From Octopus vulgaris (lineage: Eukaryota): 64,000 nt of DNA. The notes beneath the pieces are model-generated. The model was not told the DNA's origin. It made no database searches and worked only from the letters and a program-made list of their open reading frames with translations. Positions 18,245-32,313 of the stretch are shown here, in pieces. Location of the stretch: contig OX597832.1 in NCBI GenBank assembly GCA_951406725.2, positions 64,046,001 to 64,110,000 on the forward strand. The letters are read 5' to 3'. Numbering within the stretch: position 1 is the first letter of the stretch; every line of letters begins with the position of its first letter. The translations under genes were made by a program, and so were the position numbers.

Positions 18245-18388
18245 TAATAACATCGAAAAATATCTTATGAATGGGAACCCAGGTTCGAAATATCCTCAAG
18301 TCACCTGATGAAGGCTGGAGGGTATATCAGCCGAAACATTGTGTTAACAACAAACAAGATGAGGAGAAATATCCGTCAAGTGTAAATA
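17896..18388 (+). mobile_element. tRNA-headed element with (AAT)n spacer and a 3' minimal hammerhead (18300-18345)
   Basis: A-box ggcgtagtgttc and B-box gttcgattc at 17899-17951; cac-CTGATGA-A-GGCTG-gagggtatat-CAGCC-GAAAC-ATT-gtg downstream. Confidence 0.6.
18041..18197 (+). mobile_element. R4/Dong-like LINE 3' end inserted in (AAT)n
   Basis: KIALLGTAHILRRTLSIQ* followed by a short 3' UTR; (AAT)n on both sides. Confidence 0.75.
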
Positions 18389-20370: not shown

Positions 20371-20430
<60 letters not shown>

Positions 20431-20434
<4 letters not shown>

Positions 20435-20941
20435 AAGACGGGAAGGATGACTTCCCTTTGCAAATACTGACAGGACACAGAAAGTGTGTCTATGGCCAGC
20501 TGGAGGAGTGTGTCCTCCTGGGGCTAAAAACTACAGTAGCATCCACCCTTAGGGGTTAGCCATATTGAAATGGCAAAAATACGTCACGATGTGTTACCGC
20601 TACTGTATATAACTCACTTTGATATTTATCATTGTTTGATTTCACTTTTTCAATATCAGCGACAGTGGACGCTGGAAAAAGTATAAGTATTTGTGAAGGA
20701 AATCTAATTCTCGGCGACAACTATGATTGTCACACGCTGACGAGAGGTCAATACCTCGAAACTCGAGTCCGTGTGTATCATAAGTTGAAGACGGGAAGGA
20801 TGAGTTCCCTTTGCAAATACTGACAGGACACAGAAAGTGTGTCTATAGCCAGCTGGAGGAGTGTGTCCTCCTGGGGCTAAAAACTACAGTAGCATCCACC
20901 CTTAGGGGTTAGCCATATTGAAATGGCAAAAATACGTCACG

Positions 20942-20943
<2 letters not shown>
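20431..20943 (+). mobile_element. Retrozyme-like element: 1.45 tandem copies of a 353-bp hammerhead-containing unit in (TA)n
   Basis: 20431-20590 is repeated at 20784-20943 with 2 substitutions; (TA)n on both sides; no coding capacity; canonical HHR inside. Confidence 0.85.
20722..20782 (+). ncRNA. Type I hammerhead ribozyme, canonical core, predicted cleavage after C20769 (GUC)
   Basis: tatgat-tgt-cacacg-CTGACGA-GAGGT-caat-ACCTC-GAAAC-tcga-GTC-cgtgtg-t-atcata: 6-bp helix I plus 6-bp extension, 5-bp helix II, palindromic helix III (ACTCGAGT). Confidence 0.92.
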
Positions 20944-20984
<41 letters not shown>

Positions 20985-21477: not shown

Positions 21478-21680
21478 GTAACCACGTATGAATCGTTGGC
21501 GATTTTGTTCCTCCGTCTTCCTTTTCTATTGGACTTTCCTCTGTTTCTGAAGAAGAGCTCTGCTCGAAACGTTAAACCATCTTTTTTTCCTTCCCTGGGC
21601 GTCTGCTAATACTTTACATGTACCACATCCACCCGTTGTTATTTTTTTGTTTGTTCTTCATTTTGGGGGGATTTACCTTA
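21478..21680 (+). mobile_element. Penelope-type terminal fragment with a minimal hammerhead (21543-21577)
   Basis: gttt-CTGAAGA-A-GAGC-tct-GCTC-GAAAC-GTT-aaac; homologous to 42612-42819 (-) and 22796-22880 (-). Confidence 0.7.
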
Positions 21681-21690
21681 TATATGTGTG

Positions 21691-21770
<80 letters not shown>

Positions 21771-31401: not shown

Positions 31402-32313
31402 CGAGAGTGTACCCAAAAGAAACCGGAATTTTGCAATATAATTTTATTGACTTGTTTGTACATGTTTACACTTTCATCTCTTTCTAAGTATTCTCCATTT
31501 GAAGCAATGCATCGGTACAGACGCGTTTTCCACTGTTCGAAGCAGCACTGGGACTCTTGTGAAGTGATGCCTCTTAACGCCTCTGTCGTTTTATTTTTTT
31601 CACCTCTTTCACATCTGCAAATTCCGTATCACCAGCTTCCGTAATCAATAACGAGACCTTCGAGAAAAGTTCGGGATCAACTTCCAGCCGTTTTTTCAGT
31701 TCACGACACACATTCAGGCGTGACTGCTTTTCATCTTCCATGAACAAGCGAGGTACAAATTTTGCTGCAACTCTTTTCAGTCGGAATTCCTCGCTCATAA
31801 TTCGTCTGCAGGAGTTCCAAGAGTCACCAGTCATATTAATAGGTTCATCAATTGTTCGGTAACGGCTCTCTAAGATAATTTCAACAATTTTCATGATGTT
31901 TTCATTCATTCGGCAGGTCGATGGTCGCCCTGATTGAGATTGGTTTTCAAGCGACAAGTCCCAATTCCTAAAGCGTGGAAACCACTTGTAAACTTGTGTT
32001 TTGTTCATGGTAGCCTCCTTGTAAGCTATTTGAGGCATGGGAAATGTTTCGGCCACCATTTTCCCTAGCAGAAAACAGAATTCCACGGAAGCACGCTGTT
32101 CCTTCGTTTCGGCCATCGAAAAAAAAAATCGACGAACTGGGGAGAAGCACTACAAAACAAAGACGCACCACGTGGTAGTAGGATTACAGTCGACGACGCC
32201 ATTTGGCAGACTAATGCCTGGGGATCGCATCAAGTGGCTTCTAGCGGTGGAAGCCTGAACTACAACAGACTTGTCCAAAAGAACGTTTCCGGTTACTTTT
32301 GGGTACTCCCTCG
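31402..32313 (-). mobile_element. Internally deleted mariner transposon with TIRs and TA TSDs
   Basis: TIRs cgagagtgtacccaaaagaaaccggaa / ttccggttacttttgggtactccctcg, with TA on each side. Confidence 0.92.
31574..32116 (-). pseudogene. Mariner transposase N-terminal (HTH DNA-binding) portion; catalytic domain deleted
   Basis: EQRASVEFCFLLGK...VYKWFPRFR...SGRPST...KRVAAKFVPRL, then a jump to C-terminal FADVKEVK. Confidence 0.85.

Follow-up and report, generated by a model that had tools for sequence, protein, structure and literature searches.

Insertion ends of a hammerhead retrozyme family in the Octopus vulgaris genome

Known retrozymes and the octopus element

Non-LTR retrozymes have been described from mussel (350-390 bp), axolotl (Rtz_353/HHR_Amex2) and coral (Cervera and de la Pena, 2020; PMC7229834). 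According to that paper, retrozyme RNAs of all three animals undergo self-cleavage and build up in circular form, probably by way of RtcB; Penelope-like elements (PLEs) are proposed as their helpers. Vertebrate retrozymes are related to the pseudo-LTRs (pLTRs) of PLEs in the accessible part of 10.64898/2026.07.22.740005. PLE insertions themselves, according to PMC8557442, are partial tandems truncated at the 5' side; one arm is inverted, and a tail of 30-40 bp is often found at one end only. For an anole PLE, Frangieh et al. (2024; PMC11167929) report that two internal starts of reverse transcription define the tail in vitro, that both strands are cut and extended, and that the protein is predicted to be a dimer.

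The window analyzed here is a 64,000-nt stretch of the Octopus vulgaris genome. It contains an element at 20431-20943 for which the first-pass annotation had proposed one 353-bp unit followed by a 160-bp terminal redundancy with two mismatches. This was confirmed, and the element was located between two (TA)n runs (Table 1). The direct repeat (20431-20590 and 20784-20943, period 353) differs only at 20451/20804 and 20494/20847, and its identity ceases at both of the ends given. The unit contains neither a tRNA gene nor any plus-strand ORF reaching 90 aa, and the sole frame overlapping the element is on the minus strand and passes through the microsatellite. The unit RNA is predicted to fold better than 100 of 100 shuffled sequences (z -6.6).

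Table 1. Coordinates of features of the retrozyme insertion (window positions) and of a local Penelope-like element (locus positions).
Feature	Position	Strand	Remarks
Left (TA)n target microsatellite	20375..20430	.	
Single-armed retrozyme insertion, 1.45 units	20431..20943	+	5'-truncated at unit position 1; 3' end is S1
One full 353-bp unit	20431..20783	+	Unit position 1 is 20431; GC 42.5%
Structured region enclosing S1	20474..20606	+	Kept across diverged families; 8 of 31 predicted pairs changed on both sides; candidate RT-binding domain
S2 (unit 202-206)	20632..20636	+	Second fixed 3' end of sister copies; internal here
Unit 281-300	20711..20730	+	20 bp duplicated around a 4.56-kb LINE in sister copy L101
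Type I hammerhead with extended helix I	20723..20781	+	Predicted cleavage after C20769
Terminal redundancy (unit 1-160), 160 bp	20784..20943	+	2 mismatches to first copy
S1 (unit 157-160), fixed 3' end	20940..20943	+	Within predicted hairpin loop; putative first reverse-transcription start
Right (TA)n target microsatellite	20942..20962	.	First bases overlap element end
Young autonomous PLE	L144:281-5072, relatives L132-L148		Unit ~4.7 kb; 479-aa frame upstream of 781-aa ORF

Retrozymes have been recognized as head-to-tail, non-coding units of 150-450 bp with a GC content below 50%; here the units are of 353 bp and 42.5% GC, in arrays of up to six. Further likenesses to the metazoan non-LTR retrozymes are the unit size near 350 bp, the structured RNA, the co-occurrence with PLEs, the presence in each unit of one canonical hammerhead of type I whose helix III has 2 bp and a tetraloop, and target-site duplications (TSDs) longer than 4 bp, in this case 11-15 bp. 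Cleavage and circular RNA have been demonstrated for those retrozymes, whereas for the octopus element cleavage is predicted from the motif and circles are proposed; insertion ends (two fixed 3' ends, inverted arms, (TA)n) are counted here, a difference from the available accounts of the others. Some Xenopus families have a pLTR homologue in the accessible text, but none was found for the octopus unit in 70 loci. By these features the element is identified as a new member of the already known class of animal (metazoan) non-LTR retrozymes.

Plant LTR retrozymes are, in the parts of PMC7229834 and PMC7761336 that were available, also non-autonomous, with a hammerhead in a direct repeat and a proposed circular intermediate; their hammerheads are of type III, their LTRs are true ones with fixed ends and their TSDs are 4 bp long, whereas the octopus element has a type I hammerhead, variable 5' ends and TSDs of 11-15 bp, on which grounds identification as an LTR retrozyme or TRIM was rejected. 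A SINE was rejected for the lack of a tRNA gene, the scattered 5' ends and the presence of two 3' ends, and an autonomous PLE because neither the element at 20431-20943 nor its family has an RT and GIY-YIG ORF. The other Rfam matches in the whole window (150 listed of 390) were set aside as microsatellite-driven chance matches, all below gathering score.

An intact canonical hammerhead had also been proposed at this locus, and it is borne out by the presence of all core bases (CUGACGA at 20737-43, GAAA at 20758-61, C17 at 20769) and by a match to the full Rfam Hammerhead_1 model at 20731-20775 (32.2 bits, E 3.3e-6), which just misses the gathering score of 34. Helix II has 4 bp and the loop UCAAUA. 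The extension of helix I (6 bp, then 5 bp more beyond a UGU/U internal loop) and the palindromic helix III, both likewise noted earlier, can be read directly: helix III, ACUCGAGU at 20761-68, is an 8-nt palindrome that as a monomer would form 2 bp with a UCGA loop. The predicted catalytic fold has -11.0 kcal/mol versus -17.8 for the minimum free energy structure, in which the core mispairs; tertiary contacts are unscored in both.

The hammerhead was aligned in 11 copies, the one in the window and 10 diverged copies hand-picked from 41 distinct matches. Paired bases occupy 81.8% of cells, and in 5 of 17 pairs both bases have changed. Covariation is mixed. On three of five measures the alignment outscores every one of 500 shuffles, and on the other two it fails to (209 and 372 of 500); kinship among the copies can inflate these values. 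In seven of the 11 copies a helix II base pair is disrupted. By eye, helix III is self-complementary (G-U allowed) in seven, so that dimeric cleavage is possible; with a canonical 2-bp helix III, a dimer may not necessarily be needed.

At least two tandem ribozymes are the "active" criterion of Li et al. Fourteen of 61 arms in the family census described below pass the cleavage site twice or more, and such tandems are thus present in the family. The insertion at 20431-20943 has one, and therefore cannot itself release a monomer or circle; this copy is probably a dead end. Contigs of four sequencing runs guessed to be RNA span the whole unit, but may be DNA or read-through of insertions and are uninformative as to strand, level or circles, and were kept out of the evidence. 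Runs under seven organism labels contain 68-97% of the sampled words of 20431-20943 (close relatives or transfer).

Copies in the genome and their insertion ends

In the 2.8-Gb O. vulgaris genome, the ribozyme core has 439 exact matches, and the same pattern reversed has none. A motif near the 3' end of the young family has 597 matches, and a looser version 3282; all these are counts of units rather than insertions. Ends were counted in a census of the first 100 of the 597 matches, which comprise all of contig C1 and C2 up to 125 Mb. These form 41 clusters, or after removal of one duplicate 40 loci with 41 insertions (one a neighbor in the same locus); the motif under-samples very short arms. 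Excluded before counting were the duplicates L057 (of L052), L011 (of L010) and L099 (L064 again), overlapping loci of one insertion, pieces below 90% identity, and L132/L133 (the same as L108/L113). L028 was considered as a duplicate of the window copy and ruled out as such, despite nearly identical ends. An extra set of 23 loci, partly picked for full-length units and so biased toward long copies, was scored for pairing of ends.

The census copies average 98.8% identity to the window unit. Older subfamilies (~75-93%) and a family of ~70% identity have the same layout and retain both S1 and S2. Diverged families at L031:392-970 and L037:1748-1951 (62-70% identity) have the identical two end sites; in the L031 hammerhead, core position 3 is U and helix III is another palindrome, likewise perfect. 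Seventy-three candidates scored from a genome search with Hammerhead_1 yielded six unrelated ribozymes without likeness to the unit. A hammerhead family with a ~60-nt insertion in helix II, also unrelated to the 353-bp unit, is found at L153, L154 and L157.

The 41 insertions of the census have 64 outer 3' ends, of which 61 are at unit positions 154-162 (S1, 35 ends) or 201-208 (S2, 26 ends), while 5' ends are scattered along the unit; S2 lies 43-46 nt beyond S1, and this interval constitutes a tail. Permuted endpoints had been anticipated in the first-pass annotation, but the permutation is not free, the 3' ends being fixed at two sites. Fixed ends with TSDs, as in an LTR element or SINE, had been named as the contrary outcome; fixed 3' ends and 11-15-bp TSDs were indeed found, but with 5' ends scattered in a manner unlike either. 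The combination fits a PLE-type target-primed footprint. The start of the window copy 15 nt past the cleavage site had been singled out as well. The position is correct (20784 versus 20769), but stops near it (unit 346-2) are few, two in 68 passes, with no pile-up of ends, and the offset is therefore probably a chance truncation.

Twenty-three census insertions are two-armed, with the arms inverted and the 3' ends outward. Twenty of these pair one S1 with one S2 end and three have one end elsewhere; in the extra set, 9 of 10 two-armed insertions are S1+S2. Combined, S1 is paired with S2 in 29 of 33, and pairs of like ends are absent. If ends were chosen independently at even odds, 29 unlike pairs in 29 would have a probability of 2e-9. 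No earlier mapping of retrozyme insertion ends, and no S1+S2 rule, was found in the literature searched, of which subscription papers were a poorly covered part.

The targets are predominantly (TA)n. A (TA)4 sequence begins within 3 nt after 54 of the 64 3' ends, versus 6.4% of window positions, and also follows 9 of 18 outer 5' ends. Among 10 loci with flanks inspected, TSDs of 11, 15 and 12-14 bp were read at three two-armed insertions in unique DNA (L092, L032 and L060, respectively); elsewhere they are masked by (TA)n. Obligatory addition of (TA)n by the reverse transcriptase was rejected, L092 and L032 having no (TA)n run.

Probable circular and multimeric templates

Sixty-one arms with a canonical 3' end were available for examining the template. 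Forty-four reach the cleavage site and 42 of these pass it; 33 are longer than one unit and 11 longer than two. Their lengths are not distinguishable from an exponential distribution (KS P 0.48), with no step in stop rate at 353 nt. Three stops fall at 335-345 versus 1.7 expected (P 0.24), and the densest 12-nt window has at most seven of the 61. With the junction crossed by 42 of 44 arms and no excess of stops, cleaved linear monomers are not the usual template. The earlier suggestion of reverse transcription round a circular or multimeric RNA is backed by these crossings and by the longest arrays, of 5.1 units in the census and 6.0 units in another copy.

Sequence variants carry further information on the template. 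Variable sites with multiple coverage within a locus number 283 (a count that includes gaps and junction artifacts); the variant is in all copies at 62 of them, in one copy at 206, and in some copies at 15. Among the 62 all-copy variants, 37 span both arms, and 18 are near-private (fewer than three loci). Near-private variants are common to both inverted arms at 10 sites, and they can fill an array: two variants are in five of five units at L084, and at L096 six of six copies carry one. Such filling implies that many units were derived from one, as could happen by rolling round a circle. At L096 (G000:C2:54864000-54867000), two variants are also specific to particular turns and occur in register on the one inverted arm as on the other, which points to a template of at least three unlike units, linear or circular. 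Taken with the 15 partly shared sites, this is not predicted by a monomer circle. The template was thus likely a circle or an uncleaved multimer.

Linear, uncleaved multi-unit transcripts of genomic arrays could be copied by the same PLE machinery, with no circle present at insertion. The heterogeneous template demanded by L096 is in keeping with this, as are the accumulation of linear multimers in axolotl (available text of PMC7229834) and the use of unprocessed RNA as the main substrate of the anole PLE in vitro (PMC11167929, in the part available). However, 5' ends do not accumulate at any place in the unit, a candidate start region (three stops in 62 passes) included; the near-private variants filling whole arrays at L084 and L096 call for a one-unit-to-many step; and linear copying alone could presumably only shorten arrays. 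Exclusively linear templates are accordingly considered unlikely.

Arrays might also have grown after insertion, by unequal crossing-over or slippage between the terminal repeats of short copies, as in the satellite model of array growth of Li, Clavereau and Pollet (available text of 10.64898/2026.07.22.740005). The units of an array would thereby become homogenized in their variants, with the 160-bp redundancy as a possible substrate. It leaves the first crossing of the junction and the pairing of S1 with S2 unexplained, however, and is at odds with the 33 of 61 arms that exceed one unit without a step in stop rate at 353 nt and with the near-private variants common to inverted arms at 10 sites. 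Growth at the DNA level is therefore thought very unlikely to account for the arrays. Nor is it favored that one arm was copied from the other by fold-back: the S1 arm is the longer in 11 of 20 pairs, and the L096 variants are in same-unit register.

Irregular copies were seen at three loci. At L027:1942-2176 and L095:974-1514, internal jumps (unit 300 to 1 and 273 to 342) omit most or all of the hammerhead hairpin, possibly as template jumps across structure. At L083:812-1285, an S2 arm halts at unit 335, by the cleavage site, and begins anew at S2, perhaps having jumped off a cleaved linear template.

Penelope-like elements as candidate helpers

The genome contains a young autonomous PLE with many near-identical copies and a 781-aa RT and GIY-YIG ORF. 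The full frame is open in at least 17 copies, among 150 scored of 6136 GIY-YIG candidates. A C-X4-C-X2-C motif in its linker fits the Neptune-type linker described in PMC8557442. Copies of this PLE have their 3' ends within (TA)n, at either of two sites separated by ~40 nt; 28 ends are of the short kind and 9 of the long (two duplicate loci removed, and limited to alignments reaching that region), and all three of its two-armed copies carry one short and one long end. A hammerhead-like motif of minimal type occurs in the pLTR of this element; as judged by eye, the usual C3 and G8 of its core are replaced by U and A. Two further minimal motifs of the PLE pLTR type are found in the window, at 21547-21575 and 18305-18340; the first sits in a short repeat ending at a (TA)n run at 21692.

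The retrozyme insertions share the PLE footprint: 5' truncation, partial tandems, an inverted 5'-truncated arm, a tail at one end and a bias toward microsatellites, besides the position of the hammerhead upstream of the start sites (PMC8557442; Frangieh et al., 2024, PMC11167929, in the parts available). The octopus unit is unlike the PLEs of the same accounts in having 353 nt versus several kb, no RT/GIY-YIG ORF, and a canonical rather than minimal hammerhead. No PLE sharing sequence with the unit was found in 70 loci (150 of 6136 GIY-YIG candidates scored); two apparent matches are neighboring retrozyme copies outside the PLE, and one 45-nt match of 76% concerns the second family. Other PLE families of the genome likewise end in (TA)n. 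With matching footprints, no common sequence and several PLEs at (TA)n, the helper can be assigned to a class, not to a family.

An orphan pLTR, the 5'-truncated end of an autonomous PLE yet to be found, would have the end grammar of PLEs by descent, and 24 of 57 Xenopus retrozyme families show pLTR homology in the available text of 10.64898/2026.07.22.740005. Against this, arms longer than one unit run into more copies of the unit, in arrays of up to six, the homologous PLE is absent from the 70 loci examined, and the hammerhead is canonical rather than of the minimal PLE type. That the unit is such a remnant and not an independent retrozyme seems very unlikely.

The evidence makes it probable that insertion is by a Penelope-like RT-endonuclease copying mainly circular, sometimes multimeric, retrozyme RNA. 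As in other retrozymes, arrays with at least two ribozymes would be transcribed, self-cleave, and be ligated into 353-nt circles. The location of 3' ends beside (TA)n, with TSDs of 11-15 bp, suggests a staggered double-strand cut, and the occurrence of one S1 and one S2 end per two-armed insertion that both DNA ends are primed, at two internal RNA sites. The arms traverse the cleavage junction up to five to six times and halt at scattered places; two arms would then be joined head to head, or a single arm survive, as may have happened at 20431-20943. Some findings count against parts of this scheme: in vitro, the anole PLE mostly used unprocessed linear RNA (PMC11167929); only one of nine predicted retrozyme dimers from Xenopus underwent cleavage in vitro (10.64898/2026.07.22.740005); and the 43-46-nt tail compares with ~40 nt in the local PLE and 30-40 in print.

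More tentatively, and with somewhat less than even confidence, a dimeric Penelope-type enzyme could prime both ends of the staggered break on a single retrozyme RNA ring, with one subunit using S1 and the other S2 in every case, and each rolling round the ring. The PLE tail would then be the footprint of asymmetric twin priming, and retrozymes would be recognized by RNA shape with no sequence in common. The rule of one S1 and one S2 arm is sharp, and bears on how PLEs make their tails and inverted repeats; more generally, a young family with countable ends provides genomic support for copying across the junction and for mobilization by PLEs, both of which are proposals in the available literature.

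Insertions of other elements were also noted. A 4,564-bp L1/Tx1-like LINE lies inside a retrozyme unit at L101:1211-5776 (G000:C1:76901511-76906075), with RT, zf-RVT and zinc-knuckle matches; unit 281-300, which lies just before the ribozyme, is duplicated (20 bp) on its two sides. L040:1716 and L041:1346 apparently mark the two sides of a second LINE, inserted at this position in an older copy. A similar LINE end is found directly upstream of a U2 gene (L183), and by eye a 5-nt word occurs ~59 nt upstream both of U2 starts and of unit position ~284. In a 35-nt comparison for an snRNA-type promoter, 42-299 of 300 shuffles were as good. Unit 281-300 is a weak candidate for a transcription start region. 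Elsewhere in the window, an open frame at 31574-32149 on the minus strand matches a Mos1-type transposase helix-turn-helix (HTH_48, E 3e-5) and is a mariner fragment.
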